From Raillietiella orientalis (Eukaryota): 64,000 nt of DNA. The DNA is taken from positions 124,001 to 188,000 of the forward strand of contig JAYWIR010000032.1 of the NCBI GenBank assembly GCA_036172245.1. Reading direction: 5' to 3'. Below the pieces are notes generated by a model. The model searched no databases, was not told where the DNA came from, and saw only the letters and a program-made list of their open reading frames with translations. This document shows positions 16,186-55,951 of the stretch, in pieces. The position numbers were made by a program, and so were the translations under genes. The stretch's first letter is position 1, and each line of letters opens with the position of its first letter.

Positions 16186-17927
16186 TTTATCAACCGGAGG
16201 TGCCAGGGCACTAATTCGGAACAAATAAGAGTACATGTTACTTTCCTGTGATGAACCCAAGGGCTCACCATCCACAACAGCAAGCTAGTTGCCGGCGCAA
16301 ACACCGGTGAGGTCCATCCAACGCGCAGGCTAGGAAGAATTAAAACAAAAAACATTCAAAAGGAGAAATGTAAAGAGGCCTAAAAGTTTTTGGAGTGAAA
16401 AGAGGCGAGGATGGGATCACATTGCGCGTGAATTGGTCCTCTATATCCTATTTAGGATCCTATCGAGCTGAGTCCCGTTCACACCCAGGTGGGAATATCT
16501 GGAGAGCTTCGTTGCGAATATTCGCATCCACTGTGTGGCATTCCTGCCATTCGTGCTTCATCAACACGCTTTCCATGCTGCCACGATTCCGCGTATGCAG
16601 TACAGCACTGCTGAGGAAACGGCCGGTGGCAAGAAGGCACGGGAGAAAAGTCGCCGGAAAATGTACCTCCGTCAATGTTCAGGGTCGTAGCAAGACGATC
16701 CCAGAGGGGGCGGAGGCCGACGAATTCCACAAGAAGCAGGTGGAAGGTCTCCTTCTATCCGCACTGTGCACAAAAGGCACCCACACTCCGAAGAGTTCAG
16801 TGGGGCAGCACCGTTGCCACTGGTGTCGTGTCCGCCCAAGTGCTTCCGGTGGGACACACGTTCATGTTCCGCAGCGTGCAGCGGGTGTAGATGCCGGTAC
16901 GCAGGAAGTTGCAGGATTCTCCACTGATCTTGTTTAACTTTGTCTACGTTCCAACTGTTTCTACCAGCCATGGGCTGAAGTTGGCGGGGCTGCAGGCCTT
17001 CCATCCGTTCTCCGTTGTCAGGTTGGCCATACGTCCCAGGAGAAGTCCGCATCTTCATACTTTCCTGCCGGGGCACAGAAAAAAAGATGCGAGTCCTTCA
17101 ATCCCGGACACATGTCTGGCGAGAAATCGGGCCGGAACGCACCAAGGGGTGTTTCACATCTTCGCTGCGATGGCTAGAGTACGCCACCGCACCTGTGTTT
17201 CGACGAGCTCCATCGTCAGCACGCTAGGACCTCCGTCCCGACGTGGAGCGCAAAAGTACTTTAAAGGCACACGAGGCCTGCCTCCGCCCTACAGGGCGAT
17301 ACGTAGTAGGTCATTCGTTCTATTCTTCAATTCACGGGGTATGGGGCAGACAAAAAGCAGGGGGTGAAGGAGGAGGGATGCGAACGCGTTTCACACCGCA
17401 GCCCGTTTCGCCAAGTAGAGCTTGCCTTGCCGGAACGGACCGATCGCCAGCGATGCTTCTTGGAGGCGGACGGACCTGGCTTCTGCGGAGCAGAAAATCC
17501 CCAGCGGTACGCCAAGGTACTTGATGCACCTGCCCGTGGGAAACCACAAACGGATACAGTCGGACCGTGGAGCCCACGCGAAGTTTACGAAAATTATACA
17601 CCACTGCACCTTTTCACCTCCAGGCTCGTCCCACGGCGAGAAAACTTTAAGACATACTCAAACGCGCACGCCGGGGAGGACCCGGGGAGCAGCAGCAGAG
17701 GATCGTCTGCGTAGGCCGACACGGCAGACGCGCCGGGGTACGAGCTCGGCAGGGTAGACAGAGTATCCCTGTATGCACTCAGCACCAGCTCCAAGTAGAT
17801 GCTGAGTAGCAAGGGACTCAACCCGGTTCACTGGTCAACAAATTAAAGTTGTGTGCCGCCCTGCTCACCTCGATGACCAGGACTCTCTCGTGATTCGGCC
17901 CATCTGGTTTAAGGCGAACGTTGAAAT
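16186..17927 (-). mobile_element. LINE 3' half with an internal deletion at ~17820; host of the element ending at 17928
   Basis: SPLLLSIYLELVL...SAYADD and IKYLGVPLG. The short EN piece FNVRLKPDG at 17820-17927 is joined directly to RT motif B. 3' terminus rc CCGGTTGATAAA. Confidence 0.85.
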
Positions 17928-20873
17928 TTTTCTTACCGGGTCACGCCGAGACGTTTATTGATAAAAACTATCTGGAAAACAAATGTTTCCAGACAGCGAT
18001 TACAAATACTAAAAACGTAGATTCACCATTGGCACGCAGGCCTGATAAACTAAAGCACCTGAAAGAATGGGGGAAGGGGGGACTACAGACAAAAAAGAAC
18101 AGTCTAAATGGGAGGAATGGGGCAGGGAACTTTGGTGACGCTTTGCAGTCAAAAGAAAAAACAAAGCGGAAGCACCAAAGCACAACGGAGCGAATGAAAG
18201 GAGGGATGAGACAACAAAAATACAGTTTAAAGGAAATGAAGGTGGATCACGGGGTTGGTCGTTGGGAACCGTTGAGCATGCGGCGATGGATGCCAGTTAG
18301 CTCCTCCGTTGCGTTTTCAATCAAGTGTCGCCACCCAGCTGCCGACCTAATGAAGTCAACTGCCTTCCTGCTGACACAACATTGCAGCCCAGTGTTCTCC
18401 AGCACGTCTCGGATTGTGACGATGGCGCGGATGCAACCAACTGTCGAAATCAACGCAGCCGTCGAAAGTCCTCGCGCTTGGAAAAATCGTCGCTGCACTT
18501 CTTGGGCGGTGGCCCCCAGTGCATGGAGAGCTGCTGCACACCTCCGCCAGAGTTCCTGGAGTACACCCCAGTCCATAACAATGTGCGAGAACGACTCCAT
18601 CGCGGGGCAAAGTAGGGTACAGCCAGCCCAAAGGCAGCTCGTTGGCGCCGCTCGTTGTAGCGCAAGCGCCAGTGCAAGAAGAGCAAGACGTCTTGCTTCC
18701 ATACAAGGGAAAACACTGAACCGTCCAAACACCAGAGAGAGATTATAAGCTCCCCGGGACCAACACCAAGAGCATCTCCGCAACGAAGTAACCCCTTTGG
18801 TGTAGCACGAAGAGTGGCGTCATCCGCAATCTCGCTCTTGGCCCATTAGCCAATTAGTTTGGTTCTTTCTGCAATGATGCAGGAGAACTTTTACCTTGCA
18901 GGCTGACTACTGTCATTTCCAACCTTGAGGAAAGACAGCTCAGGCAAGGGGCGTGGCGGCCAAGGAGGAAAACTTCACCTCGTCCTCCATGACATCTTCA
19001 AGCGACCAAGTTTGGAATCCACGCAAGGGGCGAAGATCTTCACAGCTCATTTCTAAGAATGCACCCAAAGAATCCATGGATTCCTGCCGCCATGCATTAT
19101 AGTTCATTGGGCAGCAGGAAACCCACGTATTGGCTTTCAAGAGGGTGGCGATTTACCTCAACGGATAGCCAAACCCCTGTTTCTTGTGGCGCAAGACTGG
19201 CACCTAGGAAAGAAGTCCTTCACTGCCTGCACACCTCCTTAGGAGGATGCGCACAGGCGCACACAGGGGAGAGTCCATAGATCGGCACACAGTGAGAGCA
19301 TTCGGAACTGCACTTCCAGTCCGATTCTCTCCATTGTAAGAAGGCCAAGGCCAGCATCCGGAAGTGTAGCAGTGAGGTATTTCAGACGTATCCTCGATCG
19401 CGGCCTACCGCTGAGAGCGTTCCTTAACAGGGGTTTGCCCCCTTTTTGGCCGCGTAGGACGGGTCCAAGATTAATAAAAGGGGTCAGATGAGGGGGGCCA
19501 CGAAGGTGTTCCAAATAGCCGCAAGTTCCAGAAAGGTGGAATCCCCGTTAATGAACGGGCTGGCGACCAACTCTGCCTTAGGAAGGCAGTCCGACCACGC
19601 TTCGGCAGCGCCCAGGTCGCCCTACGGAACGCAAAGGTACCTGAAGTACCCTGCCCTAGGGATCCCCATGTAAATCCATTCGGACTGCTTCCCCCACGAC
19701 GCTCCTACAGAAACGACCCCGCTCTTTTTCTTGCTCACCCTCGAAGTTTAGGGAAATCTTCAAAACTGGACGTTGGGGTGGTCAAGTGGAGCAGAATCAG
19801 CAGCTCAAATGCATAGACAGTCACTGCAGGTGTTCCCGTGCAAGAGCTAAGCAGGTATTCCAGCATCAGCCTATAAGCCCTCAGCACCAAATCAAAGAAG
19901 ATGATTAAGAACAACGAGCTCCAACTGTCAACCTGCCTGTTGCCCCTGCGCACGGGAATAACGTACACGTGGCAGCCGCTGAATCAAATGCAAGTTAGCG
20001 CGTGAAGCCAGCATGCACGCAGGTAATTCAGGAGTTGCACCGGGAGACCCAGCCGTTATAAAAGCTCTAATAGGAGTCCTTGGTTTACGCAATCGAACGC
20101 CATGTGCTGGTCAACTGCGACCGCCAAGGCACCCGAAGTACCCTCCTGCCGCTTCTGTCGATACCGTGTGCCTTTGGCGGCGGCCTTGGACATGGATCTG
20201 CTTTGCTGCGCTACGCGTTCCTGCAGCAGCATCCAGGTTTGGGCAAACAGCAGGTTCGCGTCCATGGACCGCCTGAAAACACAGTAAGTCTGCTCCGGGC
20301 TCAGCAAGGACTGTGCGATTCTCCCTAGCCGCGCAACCCACATGTTGGAGAACAGCTTGACGTCCGAGTTCATCAGGGTGACCGGACTCCAGTTGCTTAG
20401 ATGGCGTCCCTCTCCACCTTTCGGCAGGGGACGCACCCACGCTAAGTGGAAGGAATTGGGGGAATCCCCAGAATCCCTTATCAACGACGAGAGGCGAGGC
20501 ACCAGGGGAACGAGCTTCCCCTTGAGCTTCGCGATGGCGGAGGAAATTTCCTCCGCCGTGAAGGACTCTTTGAGACGTGAGCGTTCCTCTTCTCTAACAA
20601 CGGGAGCATCCTGCCACAGAAGTATCTCCAATAAGATATTCATGGTAGGCGCTTCCGCGTATACCGAGGAGTAATTACTTTTTAATATGCGGCAAATACC
20701 GGATGGAGTCGAGAACTCTAGTTGTTTTTGTCGACTGAGCAAGATGCTGCATATTCTTAGTCTTGGCGCTTTCCCCTTGTATTCCGCAAGCCGGTTGATA
20801 TCAGCGAGTCTGGAAAAGGTGCTCGCCTGCAGGAAAGTCCCGCTGTTGGCGACCTCTGCTCCGCAGCCCACGG
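17928..20873 (-). mobile_element. LINE ORF2 and 3'UTR (subfamily 'Z', C-terminus QRPTP), interrupted at the EN-RT linker
   Basis: RT motifs LPKGGEGRHLSNWSPVTLMNSDVK and VDQHMAFD; 3' end rc AATAAACGTCTCGGCGTGACCCGGTAAGAAAA. Confidence 0.9.
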
Positions 20874-20874
20874 A

Positions 20875-22867
20875 AAGCGGACGTGTTTTTCCTTCGCTCC
20901 CGAAAGAGACGAAAGGAAGGCGTTTCTACTGAGTGTGGTGCTTTGTGCACATCGTTGGTGTCCGAAGGAAACCTTGCCTGAGGACACCACGGTAGAGGTA
21001 GGTGTGGGGAGGCTTGTCCACTCCAACAACCTACAGAGTCATGGGCATCCGCTCAAGAATCGCTCTCATTGCCCAAGGCGAGTATGTGGAGCACCATGGT
21101 ATCCGCGCCTAGAGCGGAAGCAATGGCCGAGAAGGCCGCTTACAAGGCAGTGGAGTATAAACCCTCGCTGGTCTATCAGGTAAGCAATTTTTTCGATTAG
21201 CGAACTGCACGCTGCTTTACGAAGGCGCTGCAGAACGCCAATGTTTTGCAGAACGTTCAGCGAGTCGGAATTGTCTGTAAAAGTCTTGGCGCAGAGTCTG
21301 ATGAGCACCCCGCTAAACTTGGATGGGCACTAGATTTCGCCAGTCACAATGGACCGCTCCGTAGTGGTCCATCTGAACAGCATCACCAACCGTATGACGC
21401 GGTCTGCGGTTGGTGATGAGTTGAAGAAATGCGGCAAGTGGCATGAGCTGTGGACTTAACCCACGAACCTTGAAGGCTACAATGGCCTTTTTGGGGACCA
21501 ACCGCTGCGCGTGTCACCGTGAAAAAAAACTGTGGTTTTCCCCACAAACTGGAGGTAGCGCCAGAGAGTGTGGACCTCTGGTAGGTGGGAAAGCCCCGGT
21601 ACTGCGGCTACTGTGATGCCGTGGGACACATTCGCAAGGGGTGTGCTAACATACAGTGCCATATGTGAAGGAAGAAGGGCCACGTTCGGCGTGTGTGCCC
21701 CAAGCGAACCACCCCGGTTCTCCCTGCCGCAAGAAAAGGGCAGGGGAAACGTGCATGGAAGATCGCAATACCTAAGGAGGAATGTGAACGGAGGAAGCTG
21801 CCAGCACTTCAACCTACGGGGTAAAAGTCGCAGGGAAAACCTTACCACGTAGCGGAAGGCGAAGAGGTCTGGAAGCTTGTAAAGGCCAAAATGCAGTAGA
21901 AGGTTCCAATCATGGAACTAGTAAGAACTAGTGTAAAACAGGCCATCACAAGGAAAAAACCCGTACCGCGCTCTAAAATTCTTCGTAAGTGCTCGGTGGT
22001 ACTTGAACGGATTGCCGTTCCTGAGGATGCCACTTGGGGCGACGAGACTCCTCTAGCCGTTTCCGCCGTGCTGGAGGTTCGTGACGGCGTTCCCTCTCTT
22101 TGCCAGAGGGTGAGCCGCGAGACGCGGGCGTCGAAAATGAGGAACCCGCGTTCGCGCAGGCGGCGGAGGAGCTCGCGGCAACGCGGGCGGAGCGCGAGAA
22201 CCCCTCGCGCAAGGCAGTGAGAAGGCCGGCTCCGGTGAAAAAGACGTCCAAAGGTGAGTACGAACTTGGGGTCGGAAGCTTATCCTTTTCTGCGGAGGCA
22301 CCCACCAGAAAGTCGTGACGCAAGTACCAGAAGCTCAGGAGGCGCCTCCCCTGCATCAACGAGGAGGAGAAGCCGGAAGGCAGCGGCAGCGTGGAATTTC
22401 AGGAGGAAGAATTCCAACGCACGGGAGCCGTGGAGAAGGTCACCACCATGGAGGAGGGTGAGCAGGGGGGCGATGTCCTCCTTGTTTTCGCCCATCATGC
22501 AAAGACCGCCCACATGGAAGAGGGCCAGCAGGTAGGCGCGACCAAACTTGGGGGTGCTCCGACCGACGCGCCAACACCCACGGAGGAGAGGGACCAGGTG
22601 CCCTCAGCACACCCCCTACTACACCAAGCGTCACGCACCAGCAGGTGGCCGACGTCGCACTACCACCTTTCCAGAATCCACACCTGGACACGCCAGTCGC
22701 CGTGGGATTCGCGCTGCCTGTTGGAATGTCAACAAGCTGCGCCACAATAGCAACAGGAGAGATACAGCCGACACCCTGCGTGAGCTCGACCTGTCCCTGC
22801 TGCAAGATATCCACGTGTCACCAAGGCGGACGTCCAGGAGATCGAGACGATCGCGAGGAGTGGGTTG
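20875..22867 (+). mobile_element. LINE 5' part (subfamily 'Y'): 5'UTR, ORF1 pseudogene and start of EN
   Basis: 5' motif aagcggacgtgtttttcc; zinc-knuckle remnant at ~21600; CWNVNKLR...LLQDIH (APE domains I-II). Confidence 0.9.
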
Positions 22868-24507
22868 TTTATCAACCGGGTGTGGCTGGACGTTCATTGG
22901 AAAACAATCCAAAAACAGCTTTTCCGGACAAAGTATACAGAGAAGACGGAGGGATCTTTGACAGGCAGGTCCGTATAACGATAGTCTGGAACCGAAAGGA
23001 GAGGATCACAAATATACTTCTATAAAAAATAAAAACAAAAATATGGAGAGCAGGGGATAGGGGTGAACGCAACAGAGTTCCTGAAGGGAAACATCCTGGT
23101 GCATTTCCAGCCATGCAACGTGTTCTGACGCCAGGATTCAAAGTTCGTTGGGCCGCAGGGGGATTCATCGCAGGGCTGCCAGGAGACGGTATAGCGGATT
23201 CATCCGGGAACCGTACCTTCTCGTGGCGAGCTCCTTATGAGTCCGATGCGACAGAAGTGCTTCCAGTGCAGCGCCGCAGGAGGAGATGCTCGGAAGCGCA
23301 CCACGGAGTGAACCATAGCTGGGCGCAAAGTGCCAGCTTGCAGAACTGTACTAGCAGTACGATCCGCCCGAGCGCCACCATGCCCAATCCTGCATCCCGC
23401 CGAGGAGCCGCCAATACCCTGAAGCAGATCCTGGAACTCCTCGGTCCCCACAAATCGTTTCGCAACAAGGGTTGCGCCAATAGCTTAGCCGAGTAAAAAG
23501 AAGGACAAACAAAAACGATGGGACGGATGAGAGTGGCAACGGAAATTTTCCACACGAAGGCCCGTTCTGACAGGAGGAACCTGCCGCTTAGGGACTGCCC
23601 TTACAAGGCCGCCAGTGCTCTCGGCACCCAGAGCACTCGCGGCCTTGTAAGGGCAGTCCAACCACGCCTTAACTGGACAGAAGGCGCCCAAGCGAACGCC
23701 AAGGTACTTCGAGCACCTGCCTGTAGGGACTCCCAGGTGCATACAGGCAGACTGCCCCTCACACGTAGAGGCAACGGGTACAACGGTTGATACCCTTCAA
23801 TTCACACTCAGGCACGCTCCCCGACGAATGAGCTCGAAGGAGCCTTCGAACAAGGACGCCAAGGCGCACATCGGTAGCAGTAGGAGAAGGTCGTCCGCAT
23901 CGGCGGCCACGGACGAAGTTCCCAGACAGGAGCTCGGCGGGATGGCCAGCGTCAGCCAGTACGCCCTCAGCACCAACTCAAAGAAAATGCTGAACAGCGG
24001 GGAGCTTAAGCTGTCTCCCTGCCTGATACCCCGCCGTATGGGAATGCCTTTCACGCTGCGCCTGCTAAAAGAGATACAGCATAACGCGTGGCGCCACCAG
24101 GAACGCAAGTAAGCGATGAGGTGCGTCGAGAGGTCTAGGCGTCCCAGAAGCTCCACAAGGAGGTCCTGGTTTACGCTGACGAACGCTTTGCAGAGATTGA
24201 CGGCGACCGCTAAGGCTTTCGGCGTTCCATCGCGCGCTGAACATCGCCGCTTGCCTTTGACAGCCGCGCTTTCGGCTACCTGGCTCTGCTGCTCCACGCG
24301 CTTCTGTAACTCGAACCATGTTCGCGCAAAGAAGACACATGCGTCCATGGACCGCCCCGGAACAGCATACGTCTGCTCCGGACTTACCAAGGACTCCGCG
24401 ATTCTATCCAGCCGCGCGAATAGCTTCGAGAACAACTTGACGTCCGAATTCACCAAGGTAATCGGATGCCAGTTACTGAGGTGGCGCCAATCCCCGCCTT
24501 TCGGCAA
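22868..24507 (-). mobile_element. Internally deleted LINE RT and 3' fragment
   Basis: PKGGDWRHLSNWHPITLVNSDVK, RRGIRQGDSLS and ADADDLL; 3' terminus rc CCCGGTTGATAAA. Confidence 0.88.
23592..23659. repeat. Near-perfect hairpin with 30-bp arms (one mismatch) and an 8-nt loop
   Basis: ggactgcccttacaaggccgccagtgctct-cggcaccc-agagcactcgcggccttgtaagggcagtcc. Confidence 0.9.
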
Positions 24508-27500
24508 GGACGCTCGCCCAGGTCGCTGCCCTCGCGGTTACAATGGGAACTTCGCCCGACAGCCCTCAGCTGCAGGCGTATGTAGCAAATGGCTACACGC
24601 CTGCACTCAGGTATAAGGTAAGTGTCCTTATGCCTGAGCGGGATGAGCGCGAGTTTGCCCAGGAACTCCAACGGATTGGAGTTCAGAAAGGCCAGCTGGA
24701 GTCCATCATGCCCATGAGTTTGTGCGGTTACTGGGAGGTTTCCAGTTAAGACGCTCTCCTTACGCAGCGTTTACTGCACACGCCGCTGCTTATTAATGGA
24801 CAGGAAATACGCTCTATCACCACGGATCAATCGTTTCTTATCCGCCTGAGTGGAGGGAGCAAGGGCCTTTCGGACCGCCAGGTCGTGAAGGCCGGCCCCA
24901 TCCGTTCACGCGCTTCGGAGGCTGCCAAATCCTGCTGAGGGTTTCGAAGACCACCACAGCGGGCTCGCGGAAGTGCGAGTGACGATAGAGGTTCTTCGGA
25001 CAATGCCCACGCGGCTGCAGGTGGATGGAATCACTGTCCGTCTGTGGTTCGCGGGGCAAACGCTTGTGTGCCCGGAATGCGGGCAGGACGGTCACCGCCT
25101 TACGAATTGTCGCTCGGCCGCTTGACGTTACTGCCACGAGCCTGGGCACACAAAAGAAACGTACTCGGAGCTCCTTTTAAAGAACGAAAAGCGAAAGAAC
25201 GAAGCACGTTTCGCATCGCGAAATAAACGCCGCGTATCGAGGAATACAAACCTGAAAACTTCCGAGAGCGTTGCGAAAACCGCGAGCGCGCATGAGGAGA
25301 AAACTCTTTGCCCCTCCACAGAAAAGGGAAGAAAAACACAAAAAAACTCGTCGCGGCGAAGCCTCAGGCTACGAAGCCGACGGAAGCTCGCGAAGATTGC
25401 AAACATTCACAGAGACCTCGCAGCGAATTTTTCAAAGCATAAGAAAGTGCGCCGCAGGGCAAGAAGCCTCCTACTGTCGGCATCGCGACCGCGAAGCTCC
25501 CTATCAAGGCCTCGGCAAGTGGCGAGGAATGCGGTCGCTCGCCCGATACGAGAAAATCGCACCCGCGGGCAAAGAAATCCGTGCCGGATAAACCTACCGC
25601 GGCCAAGGTGCACCAGGAGCCCAGTGCCGCGAAGAAACAGCCGGCAAACCCGCAGCCTTCGCGCACGCACGCAGCGCCTGCTGCGACCAAGGAAGAAACT
25701 GCCAGGGCGAGCACAATCGCTACAGCAGTGCTCCCAGCGGTCGCAAAGGCAACGCGCGAATCAACCGATCTGGAAGAGGCAGCGCCTCACGTGATCGCTA
25801 AGGGAGTCGCTAACGCCTGCGCGGAGGCAGCACTTCAAGAGGCAGCTAAGGCAGCGCCTCTTACATCCGCGGACGAAGCATAATCTCAGGATGGCAAAGA
25901 TAACTGCGACGCGAAGGAAGACGGCTCGATGCAAATAAGAAAGGAAATTAAAAAAAAAACCATCAAGGTCCTCGCAGCTCTTTGTGAAGGTGAGTGGGCG
26001 AAAGAAACCCGCGAAACCATCCCAAAAAAAGATTGCGATCCTTTCCTCCTGTGCAGTCGTCCTCTCGCGGATGAAGCGGGAAGCTGCTGCTGCGGCTAAA
26101 AGGAAGAATGTCTAAGCCGCGGTAACAGAAAGCGCTAAGAAACAGGCATCAAATGGTTTTTCCAATTCCGCGAAACTGAAGCAGCGCCTGGCAAGCGCTC
26201 GAATGTGGGATTCTGATCCAGAGTCTAACAGAATGAGCACACAGCGCGACACTCGCCCAAAACCGCACAATCGCCTCCCGAAGACCCGCAAGCGCGTGGT
26301 TCACGGAGAGGAACTGTTGCCGGGGAGCAAAGAGGAGGGAATAGGTCTCACCTCTGAGCTACCAACAACAAGCAGGGCGGCTTCCAATGGAGATGTCCAG
26401 TCTCCAAGATCTGCCGTTCTGTCTCGTGACTGCTCCCCGGACAATGCGAGAAACCAGTGCCAACCTTCCCAGCCTTAATGCAGGAAGTCACCTCTCTTCG
26501 TCGATTTAGCGTAGCCTGCTGGAACGTCAACGGGCTGCGCAGAGACGAAAAGAGGCGCGGCGTGTCAGACACCCTGCGACAATTCGACTTGGCAATCCTT
26601 CAGCAGATGCATCACATCTCCGACGCGGAGGTTGCCGAAATTTAACAGCGCGCGGGTGGCAACCTGTACTGGCGAGAGGGTTCTGCACAATCGTGCGGAG
26701 TCGGGTTTGTCGTTAATAGTACGATGGCAGGAGCGGTGAGCAGCGTTCGATTCGACCAGCAAGGGCGAATAGGCAAACTTGTACTCAAGTGTTCAGATTC
26801 AATCGACCACGTTTTGACGAACGTATGGGCGCCAAGCGGCTTTCATCGGCGCGCCGAAAGAATCGAGTTCTTCGATGTGCTAAAGAGCCAATGCTTCAGG
26901 AAATCCGGAGCCAGAATGGAACATTTCGTAGCAGCGGACTTCAACGTCCATCTGCTTTACAACGACACGAGGTCCCTGGCGGAACGGTCGTTGGTGGAAG
27001 AGGCATGCGCGTCGGTGCACGCGCGTAATTTGGAAGCCGGCGAGCCTGCACTGGAAAGGTGCGTGGATCACGTCTACTAAGATGAACACCTACTCTCACG
27101 AGTGGGAAGGAGAGGCAGGGTGCCGTCCACGTTATCGGACCATGATAGGCTGGAGTTCGAGCTACTCCCGCCGAGCTAGGGACCTCCAAACAATGTTTAG
27201 AGGATGCCGGCGGATTGGCTGAGTCATCCGGAAGCGGCGGAGCATCTTTGCCAGTTCCTTTGCGGCTTTGGCATCCGGGAACTCGCAGACTGGGACCATC
27301 TTAAAAGATCGGTTCGCGAGTTTTGCGACCGGTTCCCCCTGCACCTGCTACCACGCGGCTTCGGGGAAGGCGTGGCCAATAGCAGAGCATTTCTGCAAGC
27401 GCGCACCTTCTCGAGTCGTGCGGAAGTCCGGCAACTCGCCGAGTACAAGGCGAGGGCGGAGCACCAGGTCTGGCAGTCTGGAGTAGCTATTCTGCTCGAC

Positions 27501-30293
27501 GACCAATTCCGGGAATGCACGGCTTCTGCCAAAGTATGGCAAACACTGAAGGTTCATTGCTCCTTGCTCTACGCCAGATCCCCGACAGAGCGAATCCTCT
27601 CGGAACTCCTTCTGCCGTGGGTTGCACACGGCATCGGCGAGGAGAAACGCGCCCGTCTCGACGAGCTTTTCACGTTGGAGGTAGTTTCTTCCGCCATCGC
27701 AGGACTCAAGAGACGGAAGACGCCAGGTAAGGACGGACTGCCCGCAGAGTTCTACCAGAGCTTCGCGGCGGAACTCGCCAAACTGGTGCTCAGACTCTCG
27801 ACGCCAATGAGGGTGACTGGCGATGTCCCTTCTTCGTTCCGCTCAGCGAGGGTGCGTCTCCTTCCGAAAGGAGGAGATCTGCGCCATCTCAACAACTGGC
27901 GTGCAATCACATTAGTAAATACGAACGTCAACTTGTTTTCGAAGCTGTGAGTCACGCGCCTAGGGAAGGTCGTGAGCTCCGTGGTAAGCCCGGAGCAGTC
28001 TTACGCTGTACCGGGTTTATCCATGGATGCGAACATTCTTTTATCGCGCATTTGGTGGCAGCTGCAAGAGCGCTTTGCGGCGGACAGCCGAACAGCGGCT
28101 TGACCTTCTGCTGAGTGCGAGCGTCAGTGCGGACGGACGGGAGGAAGGCCGGGACCCTTGGCAGTAGCAGTAGATTTGCATAAAGCATTCGACTGCTTCA
28201 ACCAGGAACTCATCTTGGAGCTCCTAAAGCGTCGTGGGTTCCCGAACCAACTTCTCCTGTACTTGCTCTCCTGCTGGGGCCACGCGCTTATCAAACTGCA
28301 TTACAGTGAATCCCGCGTGTACGGCGAGGCCGTGCGCAGAGGCATAAAGCAGGGCGACAGCTTCAGCCCGTTGCTCTTCAGCATCTACTATGAGTTGGTG
28401 CTGAAAGCATACAGGCTGACGCTGCCCGTCCTGCCCAGCGCCATTCCGTGCACTTCGTTCGTGGCAGCATGCGTTGACGACCTTCTTCTTCTGTGGCCCA
28501 TGTCCACTCCGCCGGACGAAGTCGAAGACTTATTGGAGCTGTTCCGTCGTGGAGCGGGCATGAGCGTTAACAAGGCAAAGTGCTCCGTCGTGACGCTGGG
28601 TGCGTCGTAGGAGGGGCAGGTCGACTGGATCCGCCTGGGGATCCCTACGGTCAGGTACTTTAAGTACCTTGGTGCTCCGTTGGGCGACTTCTGCTCCTCT
28701 CAATCGTGGTCCGCCTATCTTTAGAAGGCAGAGATGGCTCTAGGCTCGTTCCTGGAAGGCAACTTCGTCTTCCCGGAAAGGGCGTGCATATAGAACGTTT
28801 TTCTTGCCTACCTCCTCCGCCCCTTATTTATTGTTTGTCCGCCTCCCTATGTGCTTAAACTCCGGGTGCAGCGTCTCCTACGTAAGGTCTTGTGGGGCGC
28901 TGCGCGATCCAGGGTTCGCATCAAAGATTTGGTGGCGCCATGCCAGGACACAGGCTTGGGCATTCTGACCATCGAGAAGATTGGACTGCAAGTGCAGCTC
29001 CGGCTTCTATCCCTATGTGGGAAATTGTGGTCTAGTCACTGGTGAGCTCCGGCTCGCCATATTCTCCAGCGATGTGCCGGCTGTGCAGGATTGCTTTCGT
29101 TTCTGCCGCGCAACCTTCGCCGGAGAACTGGATTTGGCTACCCACTGAGGCATTTGTCCTCGTTGCTGTTAGCCCGTTCCTGGATTTCCTGCAGCCCCTC
29201 CAATTGGAATGCTCGGCAGCAGGAAGCTCTGGAGCACTGGACGTCCACTTTGGATGTGCAACCAGAGCAACTGCGACCCTTACAGGGCCTCTTACGCAAA
29301 CCGCTAGGAGTGATCCTACAGGAGTGGTCGCTTTGGTCCCGGATAGTCGTCTCACCCATCTCCGCAGCGCTGTCTGCTTTCAGAGCAAACAACGACAGTA
29401 GCCAGCCGGCAAGGTGGGAGTTCTCCTGCAGCATTGCAGGAGTGGTAAGACTGCTGAGCGGCTGTAGAACGAGCGTGTTGGTAGACGCTACCACTTCTCG
29501 TTACCTGGCAAAGGGACTTCTTCGTTGGAGTGAGGTTCTTGGATTACTCCCCGAAGATCTCGTGGTCCCTTCCTTGTGTGTGGACACCTCCGTTTTCCCG
29601 CTTCGATGGGAACAGAATGTTCTGCTTTTGCTGCACTGAGGATTTCAGTGAAATAAGCGCAGGTACTTGTTATCCTGGGAAGTCGCCTCCCCGAACTGCC
29701 TCAGGTGCGGGGCGATAGAATCGCTTACGCACTTGCTCCTTAAGTGCAGTGACTTGCGGAAGTTGTTGCGGAGACTTGCATTGGCACTTCGTCGTCACCA
29801 GTACATTGTCATCGACCTGCTGCGACGCTTCTTCAGCGAAGACTGACTGGATAAAGACGCTGTGATCGCAACAATCTGTTGCATCCACGCCATCGTAGCG
29901 GCCCTCCGTAAGCTACAAGTAAGCTCTCAGCGAATATACGCCGCCAGGATAGCCGAAAACCTTATGAAGGTAGTTGTCAGGTGGCCTCATCTGCCAAGAA
30001 AAGTCTCCACGGAAGTCGCCATCGTCAGACAGCTCTTCTAGGAAGATGAGGAACGTTTAATACCAATGATCCCTGACCCCATTCTATACTGTTTTTTTGT
30101 TTGTTCTCTTATGTTTTGTTTATTTTGTACCTCTCTCCCTCCGTTCCTTTCTTTTAGAAGGCGACCTGTGTGCCTGTGATCCTTCCGGGCTGAACTTTCT
30201 GTATGGGCCTTTCCTGTGTCTCGGAAGGATGAATCTCCCTTCAAGATTGTCATTTGTTTTTACAAATAAACGTCCCGGGGCAACCGGCTTCAA
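24508..30293 (+). mobile_element. Near-full-length, uninterrupted but pseudogenised LINE (ORF1 ~24543-26478, ORF2 ~26478-30040, 3'UTR)
   Basis: Domains in order: ORF1 knuckles; TAATG at 26476; EN (CWNVNG, NVWAP, ADFN, DH); RT (KTPGKDG, DLHKAFD, GIKQGD, CVDD, KYLG); Cys/His domain; 3' AATAAACGTCCCGGGGCAACCGG. Many stops and frameshifts; no 5' motif. Confidence 0.93.
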
Positions 30294-30299
30294 TCCGCA

Positions 30300-31413: not shown

Positions 31414-31418
31414 TGGTT

Positions 31419-38288: not shown

Positions 38289-38710
38289 TACTGCAGGAAA
38301 GATGACGGTGTGTGGGAACCGGCCTCTTCCGAGGCGGGTGAGATGACCATTAGGGTTTCAGCCTCCTCAGGCACCTTGGGTACCTTTCCGGCTTCAACCC
38401 CCTCCATCTCCTCCGTGTCTGTGCGTGGTGGTCTCTCGGGTGACGATTCCCGGGATTCTCCTACGCTCATGGCACCCTCGCAGTCGGAAGTGATCTCCAC
38501 GCCTTCGACCTGGAGAGGGGCTTTCCGTGGCTTGCTGGACTTCCTTCCAGCCTTCCGGCGGGGTGCCGCGGAGATGGAAACTTGGTTTCCGGCCTGCGCT
38601 TCAGGGTCGGAAGTTACCGACTCCTCGGTGGAGGCCGTACGGCTAACTGCCTTTTCGCCAGCCTTGTAGGGGTCTGGCTGCAACGTGGCAGCCAGCTCCT
38701 CCGCCGCACG

Positions 38711-44179: not shown

Positions 44180-44295
44180 AGGACGCCGCGCTCGATAAAG
44201 TCGCGGAGGAGCCCGCGGCAACGGTCGCCGCTGGCGAAGACGCGGCCTTCGAGAAAGCGGCGGAGGAGCTCGCAGCAACGCTCGCCGAGCGCGAA
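44180..44295 (+). repeat. In-frame 57-bp tandem duplication in the ORF1 tail
   Basis: DAALDKVAEEPAATVAAGE-DAAFEKAAEELAATLAERE; single-copy in the related ORF1 at ~22140-22200. Confidence 0.7.
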
Positions 44296-47248
44296 ACCCC
44301 GTCGCGCAAGGGCGTACGCAGGTCGGCTCCGAAGAAGGCCCCCGCAGGTGAGTGCGACCAGGGGGCCGGAAGCGGATCCTCATCCTCGGAAGCACCCCCA
44401 GGAAGTCGGGACGCAAGTCCCAGAAACCCAGAAGGCGCCTCCCCTCCACCAGCGAGGAGGAGAAGGCGGAAGGAAGCGGCAGCGTGGGAATCCCGGAGGG
44501 GGAACACCCACGTTCGCAAGTTGTCGAGTCGGCCACCCCCATGGAGGAGGGTGAGCAGGGGGCTGAAGTCCTCCGTGCAGTCGCGGAATTAGAGCAGCCG
44601 GAACCCATGGAGGAGGGCGAACAGGTAGGCGCGACTCCACCTGCGGGTGATCCGGCCGACGCGCCGGCAATGATGGAGGAGGAGGAACAGGTGCCTTCAG
44701 AACCTGTCCCTCCTCCCCCGCCACCTAGCTTCCCGCCCCAGCAGGTGGCGGACGCCGCATCGCCGTTTTCCCAGGACTAACACCTGGGCTCGCCAGTCGC
44801 CTTCGGATTCGCGCGGCCTGTTGGAACGTCAACGGGCTGCGCGACGACGGCAACAGGCGAGATACGGCCGACACCCTGCGTGAGCTCGACCTGGCACTGC
44901 TGCAGGAGATCCACGTGATCACCGCGGCAGACGCCCAGGAGATCGAGACGATCGCGGGGGGTCGGTTGTATTGGCAATGCGGCCTTCGAAACACCTGCGG
45001 GGTCGCTTTCTTCGTGAAGCCGGCAATCGACGCTGCCGTAAAGGGCGTGCGGTTTGATGACGACGGTCGGATCGGTCAGCTGATTCTTAGCTGGTCCGAG
45101 TCGATTGACCTAATCGTCACAAACGTGTATGGCCCCAGCAGCAAACAGTGGTACCGCGACCGCACCAGGCTGTTGGAAACCCTGATGCGCGACTGGCTGG
45201 CGGATACCAATGTGCGAAAGGCTCACCTGATAGCAAAAGATTCCAATCGAGTGCGGACGTGTTCTTCTTCGCTCTCGTCTCCGTGCTTTCATCCGCTTCA
45301 TCTTGTCGTCGTACATTTTGACGACGATGTCGACCCAACCCGAAGCTACTGAAGTTGGAGGAACAGCATCCGGATCTGCAATCGCGGAACCGACGGCCGC
45401 CTCCACTTCGTCTTTCTCGCCAATAGAGAGGAGGTTTGCTGACGTTGCTGCCACAGAAGTCGTCAAAGGGAAACCACTCGACGAGTCGGAGTTGCGGACA
45501 TACGTAGCCCAAGGGTATGAACCTGCTCTCTGATATAAGGTGAGTGGTTTTCTTTCTGCGCGCGACGGGAATCAGTTCAACGATGAACTGACCCGTGTTG
45601 GCGTGCGGGAGGAAAACCTCCTCGCCATTATGCCCGTAAAGGATATGGGCTATTCCAAGGTGCGTTGCAAAGACGCTGCACTTGTGCAACGCTTGCTGCG
45701 CACCCCGTTGTCGATCCGTGGCCAGAAGGTCTTCCCGGCCGCCATGGACGACTCATTTGAGGCGGAGATTTTCGACATCGAGTCGGAAATCTCGGATATT
45801 GATATTCGGAACGCGTTGGCGAAATTCGCCACGGTTTATGCGCAGTGGAGGGTGCGTAGCAACCTCAAGGACTTCCCGTCCATACACAGCGGAGTCGCTG
45901 GAGTCCGGCTTACAATGCCGGACCGCCGTCTGCTGTGAACCAAACATTACGTGAAAGACACGGTCGTTCACCTGTGGTTCGTGGGCAAAGTAAGAACGTG
46001 CGAGTAATGCGGGAAGGAGGGCCATTGTTTGGATAAATGCCCCTCTGTAAAATGCCGTTATTGCAAACTATCCGGGCACCAATTGAAAAATTGCCCGGAT
46101 CTTTTGCGAAAAAAGGCAGCCGCGGAGCTCCATCTTAAAAAACAAAGCGCGGATCAAAAGAAAAAATCTTCGAAAAACCTGGAGACCCCACGGCAGAAAT
46201 TCCGAAAAAACGCGAGGCGCAATGTCGCCCCAAAGCAGCAGGAAACCTCGCACGCGAAGCCCTGCGCGCCCCCTCTCGCGGCAGTGGAGCCGCAAAAGAA
46301 AGGGTGCGGGGAATCCGGGACAATGGTATGTCCCCCTGGGCGCAATAGCTGTCCTTCCCAAGCACTCCCAACTCTTTCGGAGTTCGAGCAACCGGCGGAG
46401 ACGTCAATGGACAACGGCGGTAAGGACACTTGCAGTACCGTCAGATCCATTCCTTCACCTCCTGCAGTGGCTGAGAAGCCCAAATCAGGTAAGAAGGGTT
46501 GTGCCGTGTCGACCTCGAAAGTCGGCAAAACAAATTCCGCGTCGCGATCCAAGACCGCGAAAGCGGAGAAAAATCTCACGCCGTCGCAGTCGAAGAGCAA
46601 GCTCTCGACTGGCGCGGATGCCATGCCAACGAAGGGATTAAAAGCCCTCCCGAAGGCAGCGTCCATGACGAGCGTGTCGGAGCCATCGAAACTGCTCCCG
46701 TTTAAAGACGCGGAGGGCTTCAAAGATGGCAATGGAACACAATCTCCATTTACGGCGCCACGCGAAGTGAGGAACCGTAATGAAGTAAAGAAGACTTCCG
46801 CAAAGGTCCCTCGTGCAACTGCGCGTGAGCACGCTGAAAACGTGCGCGCCGGGAAAGCAGCCGTCACCAAAAGCGATGCTCTGGAGACGGAAAAAGACAA
46901 CAGGACAGCTGTCAATCCAGCAGAACCTGTCACTACTTCGCGGAAGGCCGAAACTCGATCCACCATGCGCCGGTCGGACACCGAAATGGATGCCGTTCCG
47001 ATCACCGAGACGAGGACAACTCGATCGAAAGCGTGTGCGCGCCGATTGAAAGTAGGCAGCCAGGCAACGCTCGCCGCGAAGCCACGCGAAGTCTCCACGA
47101 ATCCCGACGGGGTTAAGCCTGGCGTGGAGGCATTACATGCATGCAGCACGACGGAGGACGGTGGCGACCGTCCCCTCCAGCCAGTCGTGCTGCTCGCCGT
47201 CTGCTCGCCGGATAAAGCGAGCAAAAAGCCGCCACCTTCCCAGCAGTA

Positions 47249-48719
47249 ATGCATGGAATCGCGCCTTCTCGTAGTCTGTCCGTAACGTGTTGGAACGCGA
47301 GCGGACTACAGAACGACGAGAAGAGGCGATTAGTAGCCAACGCCCTGCGCCCCTTTGACCTGGCGCTCCTGCAGGAGATTCACGTAATCTCCGACGAGCA
47401 GGCAGCCGAAATCGAGGAGCGGGCAGGCGGAACGCTACATTGGCGGTGCGACGGCGCACATACGTGCGGCGTAGCGTTCCTCGTAAGAGAAAAAATGGCG
47501 GAAGCGGTGCGTAGTGTTCGTTTCGATGACGACGGACGGATAGGCCAGCTTGTCATCAAGAGGTCCGAGCCCATCGATCTCGTCGTTACGAACGTCAACG
47601 TGCCGAGTGGCTCTTGCTACCTCGAAGGAAGGTTAGCTTTCTTTGGTGAGGTGCAAAGCCACTGGCGAAACTACTTTGGCTTCCAAGTGGCGCACCTCGT
47701 CGCTGGGGACTTCAACGTCCGCCTGCTCTACGACGATTTGAGCCGCCCGAGGGAGCGCGCGCTGCCCATCGAGATGTGCGCGTCCGTGCACGCCGCCAAC
47801 TTGATGGTCAGCGAACGTGAAATGGAAAGATCGCTCGATCACGTTTTCCTCCATGAAAATGCATTCGCGTGTGGGTAGGAGAGGAAGATTGTTGACTAGG
47901 CTTTCTGACCACCACAGGTTGGAGTTTGAGATCCTTCCGCCAGGCAGGGGGCCTCCGTTGCAAAACTGGAGGATGCAGGCGGATTGGCTCAGCCAACCGG
48001 AGGCTGCGGAGCATCTACGTGGATACCTCCGAGGCTTTGCCATTCAAGAACTTGCGGACTGGGACGATCTCAAAAGATCTGTCCGCGAGTTCTGTTGCCA
48101 ATTCCCCTTGCACCGGCTTCCACGCGGTTTCGGAGAGGGCGTGGCCAACAGTAGAGACTTTCTGCAGGCCCGCACGTTTTCTAGACGCGCGGATTTCGAA
48201 CGTCCCGCGGAGTACAAGGCGAGGGCGGAGCGCCATCTCTGGCAGTCCGGAGCAGCATGCTTGTTGGACGACAAGGGCCAGGAAAGTTCGGCCCCAGCCG
48301 AAGTACGTCGCATTGTGAGACGCTACTTCTCCTCGCTGTACGCGGAATCCCCGACGGAGGATATTCTTTCTGAGATACTCCTGTCTCAGTATGCTCGTGT
48401 TGTCGGCGAGGAGAAACGCGAACGTCTTAACGAGCCCTTCACGGCGGATGAACTTTCGTCCGTTATCGCTGTGCTGAAGAGACGAAAGGCGCCAGACGAG
48501 GATGGGCTCCCTGCAGAGTTTTATCAGTGCTTTCAAGTGGAGCTCATTCCCTTGATGATGAGACTCGCGACGCTGATGAATGAATCCGGGAATTTCCCGG
48601 ATTCCTTCCGCTCAGCGAAGGTGCGTCTCCTGCCGAAAGCCGGAGACTTGCGTCAACTTAACAACTGGCGTCCGATCACCTTAGTGAACTCGAACGTCAA
48701 GTTGTTTTCCAAGCTGTAA
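47249..48719 (+). pseudogene. ORF2 of Z: endonuclease and start of RT (frameshift at ~47860)
   Basis: CWNASG, LLQEIH, AGDFN, LDHVF, SDH, KAPDEDG and NWRPITLVNS. Confidence 0.9.
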
Positions 48720-50337
48720 GTCGCGCGGTTAGGAAGTATCGCGGAATCTGTGGTGAGCCCGGAACAAACCTACGCGGTTCCGGGACGATCCATGGAGGCG
48801 AACATCCTTTTCGCGCGTACATGGATGCAGCTGCAGGAAGTTGTGGCGCAGCAAAGCCAGACTGCTGCGAAAGTCACTGCCGCAGGCAAAAAGAACAGGA
48901 GCCGACGGCAGGAGGGAGCGCCAGGTGCCTTGGCGGTCGCGGTCGATCTCCACAAGGCGTTCGATTTTCACCCGGATTTCTCCGAGTCGTTTATTAAAAA
49001 AATAAACTTTGTAAGCAAATTATTAATGGCTGTGGCGATGCTCCAGCCAGAAGCTGGGAACCACGGCGCCTGCCAATTTACCGGTTTCTAGACCGGTACG
49101 GTCCACCAAGGAAGAAGGGGAAAGCGGAAAAACAAAAAAAACTAAACAAAACAAAAAAAAAAAAAACAAAGGATGGGAGGGCACGGGAAGGGATCACTGT
49201 TGCTGCTGGAGCCGCATCATCCCTCTCAGGATGATGGCAAGCTCTTGTTTGTTCTGAACATCCAGGTGGGGCCATCGCGACACCCTCCTCAGGAATTCGG
49301 AGGCGCACTGGATGGCTTTCTGATCGCTAGGTCCTCCCGTCGCCGTGCTCCAGGCGGCGACGATCCCACGAAGGCAGCACAAGGCTGCTATCGAGGACGC
49401 TGGCCGCAGGGCGTCGGCAACGAAGAAGGCTTTTAGTGCGTCCCTGGGGTTGCTGCAAGGGATACCGATTGCCGCGGCAAAGCGGAACCAAAGGGGCCGA
49501 AGGGCAACACAATCCACTAGGAGGTGGGGGAGGGACTCCCGTTCCCCGCACCTTACACAATTGGGATCCACCGCTCCCCAGGTCCAGTGGTGTCGACGGG
49601 CGTTGCAGGGGAGTACCCAGTGCTGCAACAGGAATGCCGACTCTTGCCATTTTAGGGGAGGATGGAAGTGTTCATAAGAATCGGGGGCCACTTCAGATGT
49701 TCAATCGCAACATCCAGCAGCGCTCCCCAGCGCAGAAGTCCATTAGGAGGCGTACTCGGGGTCGCAGCATCAGTTAGCTGGCCCGTCTTCCACTCTCTCT
49801 GCTTCTTCTCCTTCCCGGAGATTTTTATTGTAACCTCCCACTTCGCCGCAGCATCGCTGTCCTGATGTTCCACTAGGGAGTCCAGCGCAGCAGCGAGGGG
49901 GGTTCTTCCTGACCACGCTCTCTTCTTGGGATCCTCCAGGATCTCACGGAGCGTGCCACTTCTGTAACACCCAAACAGGAACCTTCGTTCCTGATGGGAG
50001 GGTTGCATGCCGAACTGTCCCCACGTACGAACGGTTTCCTGAAACCAGGGACTACCGTTCGCGGGAAGACAGGTGATCCATCCTTGATTTTTCCTTGCCA
50101 GCGCAGCCACCCTCCGTAGCTGCAGTCCCCATCGGTTGACGCGGCGAAGAAGTGCAAGAAAACAAGTCAGTCCCGTCTTGCCAATGTCTTGCTGAAGTAG
50201 GAGACGTGCAGGGACGCACCAACAGGTGCACCACAACTCCGGCACAAGTGCCAAAATCCGGAACTGGAGATGCAGCTCCAGCCGCTGCAATGTCAGGAGG
50301 CCGAGACCACCGTCCCGACGCGGAGCGCTCAAGTCCT

Positions 50338-51228: not shown

Positions 51229-51250
51229 GCTTCGCCCAGGATTCCCGGCA

Positions 51251-52968: not shown

Positions 52969-55951
52969 TGCGGCCTGATCGACCTCCACCACACACGAAG
53001 CCTACACCTAGGGACGGTTTCCGGCACGAGGAGCACCGAGGAAACACGTCCGCTCTAGCCGACGTAAAGCTTTCGACTGCGTAAACCAGAAACTGCTTTT
53101 GGAGCTTATGTAACGCCTTGGGTTCCCGGCTCAACTCCTGCTGTATTTGCGCGCGTGCTGGCGCCACGCGCTAATTCGCATCACTTTTAGCGGCTGCCGC
53201 GTGTATGGTATTCTTGTTCGTAGGGGCATCCGACATTGCGACAGCTTAAGCCCGTTGCTCTTCAGATTCTTCTTTGAGTTCGTGCTAAGAGCATACACGC
53301 TGACGCTGTCTCACTTGCCAAGCTCCTGACCGGGAACGCCTGCCGTGGCCGCCTACGCTTATAACCTGCTTCTTCTGCTCCCCATGTTCACCCCGGCGTC
53401 CAGTGTCGAGGATTTCTTCGACCTGATTCTTCGAAGAGCGGGCGTGAGCGTGAACAGAGAGAAGAGCGTGGTCGTTCCTGTGGGTACGTCGTGGGAGGGG
53501 CAGTCCGACTGGATCCGCCTGGGGATCCCCACGGGCGGGTACTTTAAGTACCTTGGCGTTTTGTTGGGCGCTTTCGACGCAGCCGAAGCGTGGGCGGACT
53601 GTCTTCAGAATGCAGAGTTGGCCATCAGCCCGTTCTTTAACGGTAAGTTTACCTTCCATGAAACACCATTGTGGAAGCCATTGAAGCGACCATTTGAAAC
53701 ACCTTTGTGGCCCCCCTCCTCCGTCCCCTGTTTTTTGTTTTGGACCCTTCCTATGCGGCGAAACAGCGGGCTAAACGCCTGCTCAGGCACGCTCTTTGAG
53801 GTCCGGCGAGATCCAGGATCCGCCTTAAAGATTTGTTAGCTTCACTTCGGGATGCTGGTTTGGGTATCCTGACGATGGAGCGAATCGGACTGCAGGTGCA
53901 GTTCCGACTGCTGGCACTGTGTGCCCAGCTATGGACATCTCCCCTGTGTGTGTCAGCCCGCATTCTCCTGCGGAGATGCGCCGGCAGCGGAGAATTTCTC
54001 TCGCTTTTAACGGGCACTCAATACAGGAAGTGGGGTTTCGGGTTTTCATTGCGGCAGTGGACCGCACTTCTGGAAGCTCAATCATGGATCTCCTGCCGCC
54101 AAATGAACTTTGAAGCTTGGCGGCAGGAGTCCGTTGAATCCTAAGCGGCGTTCCAAGGAATACGCCCTGAAGATCTTCGCCCCCTTCGCCAATTTTTTCC
54201 ACGATCCTTGGAAGAAGTACTGCAGGACAAGGTGAAGTTTTCTACCCTGGCTGCCACGCCTCTTGCCGCAGCGCTGTCTGCCCTCAGGGCAAGAAACGAC
54301 AGTTACCAACAGGCAAGGTGGGAGGATTCCTCCACGATAGCGGGAAAAACAAAACCACTTGGCGCCTGGAAGACGAATGAGTTGGCAGACGCCGCCACTC
54401 CTCGTGTTACTGCAAAGGGACTCCTCCGGTAAGCAGAAGAACTTGCTGTCACCGCCGAAGAACTTGTAGTCCCTCCACAGTGTATTGACAGTTCGCTGCT
54501 CCCTCTTGCTTAGAAACAAGCCGTGCTGGTTTTCGTTCACTGGGGTTTTCAGTGCAACGAGCGTTGGCATCGTGACTCCGGGGGACTTGCGTCTGCAAAC
54601 TGCGTTCGGTGCGGATCGATGGAATTGATTCCGCACCTACTTCTAGACTGCGGTCTCCTACAAGGACTGTGGCGTAGGCTGGCAACAGCACTAATGCATC
54701 CCGTGGACACCGCAAGAGACTTGCTCCGACGATTCTTCACGCCGTGCGGGCTGTCACTAAGCGCAAGAATTGCAACCGTCGGTTGCATACGCGTGATAGT
54801 TTCCGTCCACCAGGCGTTGGTAATCAACGGAGAGCACCAAGAGGTAATCAGCAAAGCATCCTTCTACATTAGAGCATCCGCTAGATGGCCTCATTTGACA
54901 GAAGAGACAAAGAGGAATCTCGCCGCAATGCACCGCCGGTTTACACACGCTCAGCAGCGGCCAACCCGGTGATCATTGCAATACCCTCCATAAACTAATT
55001 TTTTATTTTCTTTTCACACCCGCGTCCCCATAGGCTCCGGAACATTTTAGGTGCCCATCGTATAAATCCCCTTGAGTACGGAGCCTATCCAAAAACCCGT
55101 TACCCCTCCCTCCAGTTTTTGATTTTTGTTTGTTTCCCTTCATTCCTTCCACGCTTCGAGCGGTTTGTTTACCAGGCCTGCGTGCCGGTAATTTTTCCAT
55201 GTTCTCTGTCGTTTTGTTGGTTGAAAACATTCTCCCTAACCAGTTTATAATTATTAATAAACGCCCCGGCGTAACCGATTGATAAATTTCAATCTCCGCC
55301 TGCTAACAGGTGAGCCCGAAACACAAGAGTACGCGATGATCGAGTTGTTCGCCGCCATGAGTGCGCGCAACTTGTTCGCGGGTGACAGGGTAATGGTCCG
55401 CAGCATCGACCACGTCTTCCTCGACGCTGACCTGTGTTCACGGGTCCGCAAACGGGAGAAGATTGCCTCCACGCAGTCGGACCATTCCCGGCTAATTTTC
55501 GAGAAGCGGTCTCGCGACAATGGACCGCTATCCAGGGACTGGCGTCTCCCCGAGGTCTGGAAGCGCCTCTCAGGTGCAAAGGTACACCTTCGCGAATACC
55601 TGAGAAGCGTCACGCTCCGGAATCCCCAGGACTGGGACCTTTTTAAGGAATCGGTCCGCAAGTTCTACGAGCTGTTCCCCCTGGATCGCCTGCCCTCCCG
55701 GATTTGGCGAGGGTGCTCGCAGCCATCGAGCCTATTTAAAGGTTCGTCGTTACGAGAGAACCTTTAATGTCCGTCGCTTGGCCGAGTACCGCGCTGGGGC
55801 CGAACGCCAAGCCTGGCAAGCCGGGTCGGCCAGCCTGCTAAGCGATCAGGGTCGGGAATGTTCGTCCCCGGCGTAGGTACGGCATCTCGTGCGAAGTTTT
55901 TATTCATGCCTCTACGCAAGGACGCCTCCGTAACAAGATGCCTTTCGGCGG

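Follow-up and report, generated by a model that had tools for sequence, protein, structure and literature searches.

Two copies of one subfamily of long interspersed nuclear elements (LINEs), designated Z, were found in a 64,000-nucleotide stretch of Raillietiella orientalis DNA (contig JAYWIR010000032.1, positions 124,001 to 188,000 of the forward strand; the whole stretch is called the window below), each with its 3' end at the codons for the catalytic Asp-Phe-Asn (D-F-N) residues in the endonuclease of another LINE. Judged from the sequence, Z is probably an L1-like non-LTR (non-long-terminal-repeat) retrotransposon lineage with an apurinic/apyrimidinic-type (APE) endonuclease, and would home sequence-specifically to (G)ATTTCAAY, which spells the catalytic D-F-N codons of its sibling LINEs. 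Both 3' ends of the subfamily (2/2, a small number from one window) lie at the same nucleotide, in sense orientation and in two different hosts.

The almost intact endonuclease and reverse transcriptase (RT) frame of the window (P0003; 38357..36168, minus strand, with one TAA) was used as the coordinate ruler, and its residues are numbered with q. The GDFN residues of P0003 (q178-181) were aligned with GDFN or GDYN of the solved exonuclease III family proteins, and the flanks of both Z 3' ends began at q179 by tblastn, so the original prediction that these flanks code for the GDFN motif of an endonuclease was borne out.

Insertion of Z1 into the endonuclease of H1

The first copy, Z1, and its host, H1, are made up of the following parts.

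42878..45239, plus strand: 5' part of the host H1 (X clade), with 5' untranslated region (UTR), open reading frame 1 (ORF1) and endonuclease to ...AHLIAK
45240..45248, plus strand: target-site duplication, 5' copy (ATTCCAATC); these are the final H1 bases ahead of Z1, 8/9 identical to 55286-55294
45249-55285, plus strand: the whole of Z1, a full-length L1-like LINE inside the endonuclease ORF of H1
45249..48965, plus strand: 5' part of Z1, with the 5' start GAGTGCGGACG, ORF1 (46008-47246) and the ORF2 endonuclease and RT to the K-A-F-D codons
48966..53065, minus strand: E9 (Y clade), antisense in the K-A-F-D codons of the Z1 RT; it splits Z1 and is not part of it
53066..55285, plus strand: 3' part of Z1, with the remaining RT, the C-terminal Cys/His domain ending in QRPTR-stop, and the 3' UTR
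55173-55186 and 55256-55276, plus strand: the blocks CAGGCCTGCGTGCC and AATAAACGCCCCGGCGTAACC of the Z1 3' UTR, respectively
55286..55294, plus strand: 3' copy of the target-site duplication, ATTTCAATC, holding 2/3 of the Asp codon, the Phe and Asn codons and 1 more H1 base
55295..58621, plus strand: 3' part of H1, with the remaining endonuclease, RT, C-terminal domain and 3' UTR

At the 5' junction, ...AAAAG ATTCCAATC (host ORF ...AHLIAKDSN) was followed directly by GAGTGCGGACG, and at the 3' junction ...GGCGTAACCGATTGATAA was followed directly by ATTTCAATCTCCGC. With its flank, the 3' junction reads ...GATTGATAA and then ATTTCAATC TCCGC, and the frame after it is FNLRLLTGEPE. The original prediction had placed the 5' junction at 45249 behind AHLIAKDSN with a 9-bp target-site duplication, and an FNLR-coding flank behind the 3' end at 55286; both were seen, the duplication being 9 bp long, with copies 8/9 identical, and spanning the D-F-N codons. 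When P0003 was used as the tblastn query, the upstream half of H1 (q19-181) ended at 45247 and the downstream half (q179-321) started at 55285, and the overlap of the two halves by 3 residues (q179-181) is due to the target-site duplication. The duplication begins at base 2 of the Asp codon (G, then ATTTCAATC), so that cleavage does not fall exactly at the D/F boundary; the predicted sense insertion between GD and FN accordingly held for the orientation, the codons and the two hosts, and not for that exact point of cleavage.

Because Z1 starts at the 5' terminus common to 6 full-length elements of the window, AG(Y)GCGGACGTGT, it is read from its sequence as a complete insertion (45249-55285), which was afterwards split by E9 (48966-53065). 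The copy is dead, with frameshifts and stops.

Insertion of Z2 into a second endonuclease

The second copy, Z2, and its host fragment, H2, lie on the minus strand.

17928..20875, minus strand: Z2, with ORF2 from q314 to its end (QRPTP-stop) and the 3' UTR; its upstream part was severed by the 5' end of E10 (20876, plus strand)
17821..17927, minus strand: endonuclease fragment of H2, which begins (A)TTTCAACGTTCGC and reads FNVRLKPDGPNHE..., the same codon as in H1

The 3' end of Z2 adjoins ATTTCAAC, at the D-F-N codon of H2. On the minus strand, ...GGCGTGACCCGGTAAGAAAA (also given as ...GGTAAGAAAA) was followed directly by ATTTCAACGTTCGC at 17928/17927, as expected from the predicted FNVR flank at 17927 in a different host, and the flank (17928..17821) matched q179-214 of P0003 by tblastn (66.7% identity, E 5e-9). 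The C-termini of ORF2 were QRPTR-stop in Z1 and QRPTP-stop in Z2, and CAGGCCTGCGTGCC was present in the 3' UTR of both, with only 2 matches in the window at no more than 2 mismatches; the claim that the two inserters share a QRPT(P/R) C-terminus and a 3' UTR block thus agrees with the data. This 3' block of Z consists of CAGGCCTGCGTGCC and then AATAAACGYCYCGGCGTRACC within about 100 nt. Z2 is also a dead copy with frameshifts and stops.

Two further points concern the surroundings of Z2. The reading of Z2 and E6 as 5'-truncated elements was rejected, since in both an X-clade element interrupts the G-F-G site. Beside H2, the sequence passes at 17821 from q214 directly to q649, and it may belong to two elements or to a single element with a deletion.

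Assignment of the element family

The longer open frames carried Exo_endo_phos and RVT_1 by Pfam (RVT_1 in several elements), Exo_endo_phos being located at 47216-47875 in Z1 and at 44729-45349 in H1, and a weak zf-RVT match was obtained at 49197-49700, with a CxxC...H...C pattern present. As in APE-type LINEs, the endonuclease precedes the RT in ORF2 (collinear tblastn and tblastx maps), Z1 and H1 are flanked by target-site duplications (9 and 8 bp, respectively), and terminal repeats are absent. Since the nearest solved relative of P0003 was human LINE-1 ORF2p (E 3.5e-38, with R2 at 4e-13) and the distant relatives have Exo_endo_phos, RVT_1 and zf-RVT (PF13966), the family is assigned by sequence to the L1-like elements, with an RT nearest to L1 ORF2p and a C-terminal Cys/His, zf-RVT-like domain as in the L1 superfamily.

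All full-length elements of three clades, designated X, Y and Z, start with the near-identical 5' terminus AG(Y)GCGGACGTGTTTTTCC...GCTCC, and starts with this common terminus were located at 20876, 31422, 42889, 45249, 53054 (minus strand) and 58717. In all 8 3' ends, from all three clades, AATAAACGYCYCGG(G)CGT precedes the junction by about 10-25 nt, and a poly(A) tail is absent. This block is likely the recognition element for the RT of the three clades; RNAalifold predicted zero pairs in the last 60 nt of the 8 elements, and a conserved 3' hairpin was not demonstrated.

Phylogeny and order of insertion

Trees were constructed from 10 RT fragments and from 9 fragments of the 5' region, respectively. 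In the RT tree, Z1 and Z2 were sisters (support 100/99) and formed the Z clade together with E3 and E11 (100/100), E5 and E9 formed the Y clade (100/100), and the X clade (99/99) comprised H1, E8 and E6 together with the RT piece that adjoins H2. The 5'-region tree agreed with it; the Z clade consisted there of Z1, E3, E4a and x13367, E10 and E4b were placed in X, and E7 was next to E9. Target use follows the clades.

E6 contains H1, H1 contains Z1 and Z1 contains E9, and their terminal branches in the RT tree were 0.15, 0.17, 0.083 and 0.046, respectively. Apart from H1, whose branch slightly exceeds that of E6, the branches become shorter from outer to inner, which is the order expected under successive insertion, and the nest order fits the ages suggested by the tree.

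At least six levels of nesting are present over 30296-64000, in the order (outer to inner) E4a, E4b, E6, H1, Z1 and E9.

The wider Z clade and the spelling of its own motif

The features of the wider Z clade and of one unoccupied target are listed here.

24507..30288, plus strand: E3, a sister lineage in the wider Z clade, with the 3' end AATAAACGTCCCGGGGCAACCGGC
30289..30295, plus strand: TTCAATC between the 3' end of E3 and the 5' part of E4a (wider Z clade)
26937-26945: own D-F-N codons of E3, GAC TTC AAC, without the target
47708..47716, plus strand: own D-F-N codons of Z1, GAC TTC AAC, without the ATTTCAA target
60916..60924, plus strand: empty target in the intact E7 endonuclease, with the perfect sequence GAT TTC AAT

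At the 3' junction of E3, ...GGGGCAACCGGC was followed directly by TTCAATC. The 6-mer TTCAAT occurs only 35 times in the two strands of the window (128 kb), so its presence at this junction is unlikely by chance, and TTCAATC between E3 and E4a may be a target copy common to two tandem insertions. The occupied targets and the empty one of E7 are spelled GAT TTC AAY and the corresponding codons of E5 GAT TTT AAC, and the Z clade's own motif is GAC TTC AAC in both readable elements. These spellings, from two elements, are compatible with a protection of the Z clade from self-insertion by the synonymous GAC of its own motif.

Insertion sites of the Y and X clades

In the Y clade, E5 (34509 to about 38710, minus strand) and E9 (48966-53065, minus strand) are 82% identical, and both (2/2 copies) are inserted antisense in the RT codons K-A-F-D (AAGGCGTTCGAT) of hosts of different clades. 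These sites are at 34497-34508 in E4b for E5, and at 48954-48965 in Z1 for E9, with a second copy at 53066-53077, the K-A-F-D codons being duplicated on either side of E9. The flank of the Y clade is ATCGAACGCCTT and that of the X clade AAATCCC. Three of the five X-clade copies, H1, E8 and E10, share one insertion site, the G-F-G codons (GGGGATTT in host sense), in which they lie antisense in E6, E7 and Z2, respectively. Copies of an 8-bp duplication, AAATCCCC, flank H1 in E6 (42870-42877 and 58622-58629), the 3' end of E8 is at 61339 in E7 (site 61329-61339), and the 5' start of E10 is at 20876 in Z2 (site 20875-20876).

It is possible, and is put forward tentatively, that at least three sister LINE lineages form a guild in which every lineage homes with nucleotide precision, and in one fixed orientation, to a conserved coding site in its relatives that differs from lineage to lineage: for Z, the endonuclease D-F-N in sense; for Y, the RT K-A-F-D in antisense; and for X, the G-F-G of the linker in antisense. 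If such a guild existed, the elements would parasitise each other in self-feeding nests at least six deep, and self-targeting might be escaped by synonymous codon choice (GAC for GAT in the Z clade).

Several further observations were made on these elements. The 3' end of E6 on the minus strand (39953) lies antisense in the C-terminal H-W-T-R-G codons of E4b; this may be an off-target event, its flank, TTTCCCGTGTCCAGTG, being loosely like the usual X target. A stretch of 434 bp is 96% identical between E5 (38277-38710) and E9 (51240-51673), the remainder being about 82% identical, and gene conversion or a recombinant origin is possible for it. E9 is without about 1.5 kb (endonuclease and part of the RT) that is found in E5 between 36756 and 38277. 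E4b has an internal deletion at 33294-33298, where ORF2 passes from about q35 to q193 and the D-F-N site is removed.

Proposed mechanism

Nicking by the Z endonuclease would fall immediately to the left of ATTTCAATC on the bottom strand, and the Z RNA would be reverse-transcribed from the 3' OH of the nick (target-primed reverse transcription), with Z in the same orientation as the host gene. The top strand would be cut 9 nt to the right of the bottom nick, giving the duplication of about 9 bp. The specificity of Z would reside in the element's own endonuclease, by analogy with APE-type site-specific LINEs (PMC4494074). GATTTCAAT and GACTTCAAC are candidate sequences which the putative Z endonuclease would nick better than unrelated DNA, and GATTTCAATC and GACTTCAACG are the duplex sequences considered for nicking by it. 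Because the target is multicopy and selectively conserved, many harmless landing sites would be available to Z, and a competitor would be inactivated as well. The sequences show the geometry at two junctions, the duplication, the independence of the two events, a target class matching the phylogeny and like behaviour in two sister clades, and the enzymology proposed for the insertion is drawn by analogy.

Alternative explanations

A loose specificity combined with opportunity, in which the Z endonuclease reads a short A/T-rich word, as L1 does, and LINE-rich DNA supplies the same codon twice, is considered improbable. It draws on the LINE sequence that makes up about 80% of 12-64 kb, on the number of firm Z events (n=2, from one 64-kb nest which is mostly LINE sequence) and on the X-clade insertions off the usual site (2/5, E6 at 39953 and E4b at 31422), from which it follows that specificity in this family can be leaky; with two events in a LINE-rich nest, a looser specificity of about 5 bp and dense LINE targets would be compatible with the numbers. 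Against it, the two sites agree in 8/8 bases (ATTTCAAY), in orientation and to the nucleotide, and ATTTCAAY occurs just 7 times in both strands of the window; 3 of these 7 are D-F-N codons, of which 2 come immediately after the sole two 3' ends of Z. In addition, a third element of the clade, E3, ends at TTCAATC, and two other clades each repeat their own site. Besides the small number of events and the X-clade exceptions, further points weigh against sequence-specific homing of Z to the D-F-N codons: the duplication is documented for Z1 alone, Z2 being interrupted by another element; both copies are dead, and the specificity of the endonuclease is predicted and not taken from an intact enzyme; the E3 case consists of 7 bases, too short to be verified as endonuclease; the perfect target of E7 at 60916 is empty; and the public sequences described below add no independent events.

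It is very unlikely that one ancient insertion was duplicated segmentally as a composite of host and insert, the copies then diverging. The Z copies are old and diverged (identity of Z1 to Z2 is 59% in the final 771 aligned nt and 74% in 881 RT columns), duplications are frequent in repeat-rich regions, and a copy of the Z1 junctions about 95% alike is present in a public run (X1), all of which would suit such a duplication. The hosts, however, differ more than the inserts, which makes it unlikely: H1 and H2 are 46% identical over about 100 nt beside the site, H2 is nearer to the E5 endonuclease (77%) than to H1, and the RT piece adjoining H2 groups with E8/E6 and not with H1. Moreover, the ratio of non-synonymous to synonymous divergence (dN/dS) of Z1 and Z2 was 0.41 over 540 codons (pS 0.475, from 185 synonymous differences over 390 sites; pN 0.250, from 299 non-synonymous differences over 1194 sites), against about 1 expected, an estimate from tblastx segments which somewhat favours conserved stretches and in which the neutral decay of the two dead copies is contained; other element pairs had values of 0.27-0.51. 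Z1 and Z2 diverged partly under purifying selection. Since a duplicated composite would show equal and neutral divergence in host and insert, the sequence comparison led to the conclusion that Z1 and Z2 were inserted separately, by two related lineages that were once active, and did not arise by the copying of a single composite. An origin of the junctions by recombination, template switching or mis-assembly between homologous LINEs, and not by insertion, is scarcely to be expected. The many deletions and abrupt joints of the nest (q35 to q193 at 33294/33298; q214 to q649 at 17821) speak for it, and it is opposed by Z1, in which the two ends are intact, the 5' start is canonical and a duplication flanks the element, and after which the host reading frame resumes exactly. 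The public run, in which a fraction of 0.14 of the sampled window words was present, also opposes it; its contigs (80% likeness) span the 5' junction of Z1 (3755 nt over 45219-48964, 166 differences) and the 3' junction (1040 nt over 54265-55304, 66 differences), respectively, at about 95% likeness.

Relation to known systems and database searches

For R1 and R2 of ribosomal DNA, homing endonuclease genes and inteins, the homing site is a highly conserved one within a sequence that is multicopy or essential. Homing of Z to the D-F-N codons would be like them in using a site that the target cannot easily mutate away, and unlike them in that the target is itself a selfish element, so that a competitor, and no host gene, would be disabled by the insertion.

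LINEs of the Tx1 clade are described as targeting mobile elements, with Tx1 inserting into the piggyBac derivative Tx1D, crocodilian Tx1-Mar into Mariner-N4_AMi, and Tx1-8_Crp and Tx1-4_AMi into LTR retrotransposons, and their target choice is attributed mainly to the element's endonuclease (PMC4494074). Like Z, they are LINEs of the APE type within the L1 superfamily and prefer a precise target in another mobile element, whereas the targets described in the main-text passages of that source are DNA transposons and LTR retrotransposons, none being catalytic-motif codons of sibling LINEs. "Transposons" are also listed among LINE targets in a passage of another source (PMC4640811), in which R2 is mentioned as well. 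Cnl1 of Cryptococcus is described as inserting preferentially within itself, which gives nested arrays (PMC9942834), but it is presented there as one family in subtelomeres, whereas here at least three sister clades use different coding sites in a fixed orientation and target each other. Zepp and ZeppL form nested clusters of L1-like LINEs in green algae (bioRxiv 10.1101/2025.03.28.645958); like the present nest, these are built by insertion into earlier copies, whereas no nucleotide-precise target is given in the passage describing them. In kind, therefore, site-specific APE LINEs targeting transposable elements and the self-inserting Cnl1 are already known, and the catalytic codons of sibling LINEs as target would be a further variant. 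In the literature covered, no report was found of a LINE targeting catalytic-motif codons of sibling LINEs, nor of a set of sister lineages in which every member has such a site of its own; most subscription journals, including classic surveys of target-specific LINEs, were outside this coverage.

The search with P0003 by HMMER against 1.84 billion representatives gave one close relative (P0004, 67% identity, on a metagenome contig of 2870 nt), the next being at 33%, and the 20 best matches which were looked up had only vertebrate or arachnid "hypothetical protein" labels and no family names. A turtle protein (P0005) was rejected as an informative relative; in this gene model the RT pieces are repeated and have 30% identity. 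Scanning of metagenomes gave 83 pattern matches and 0 relatives for the C-terminal alignment, and 19 loci for the RT alignment, all at no more than 36% identity save one 24-residue match and none usable. With the Z 3' motif, 0 matches were obtained in viral contigs; with the RT alignment, 30 pattern matches and 0 relatives were obtained in contigs of prokaryote genomes; and no longer protein was found by a word-based search with the Z1 endonuclease.

A LINE homing to the catalytic-site codons of its relatives would represent the logic of homing endonucleases turned on other selfish elements, would offer a simple mechanism by which dense nested LINE islands grow without damage to host genes, and would set up an arms race readable in synonymous codons. 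Site-specific LINEs are natural models for programmable, template-copying gene insertion, and each new APE-type specificity is another case of small nucleases reading 8-10 bp of DNA.

Setting of the nest in the window

From about 12 kb to its end, the window has 51-61% G+C and consists of densely nested, diverged fragments of non-LTR retrotransposons of one family, as seen by self-comparison and the translated map. Positions 1-10,000 are AT-richer (38-45% G+C) and free of LINE sequence, and no Pfam match was obtained for the open frames of at least 110 amino acids in 1-12 kb. The AT-richer DNA outside the nest holds an inverted repeat of 390 bp (1-390 and 2129-2518), the arms of which are 93% identical.

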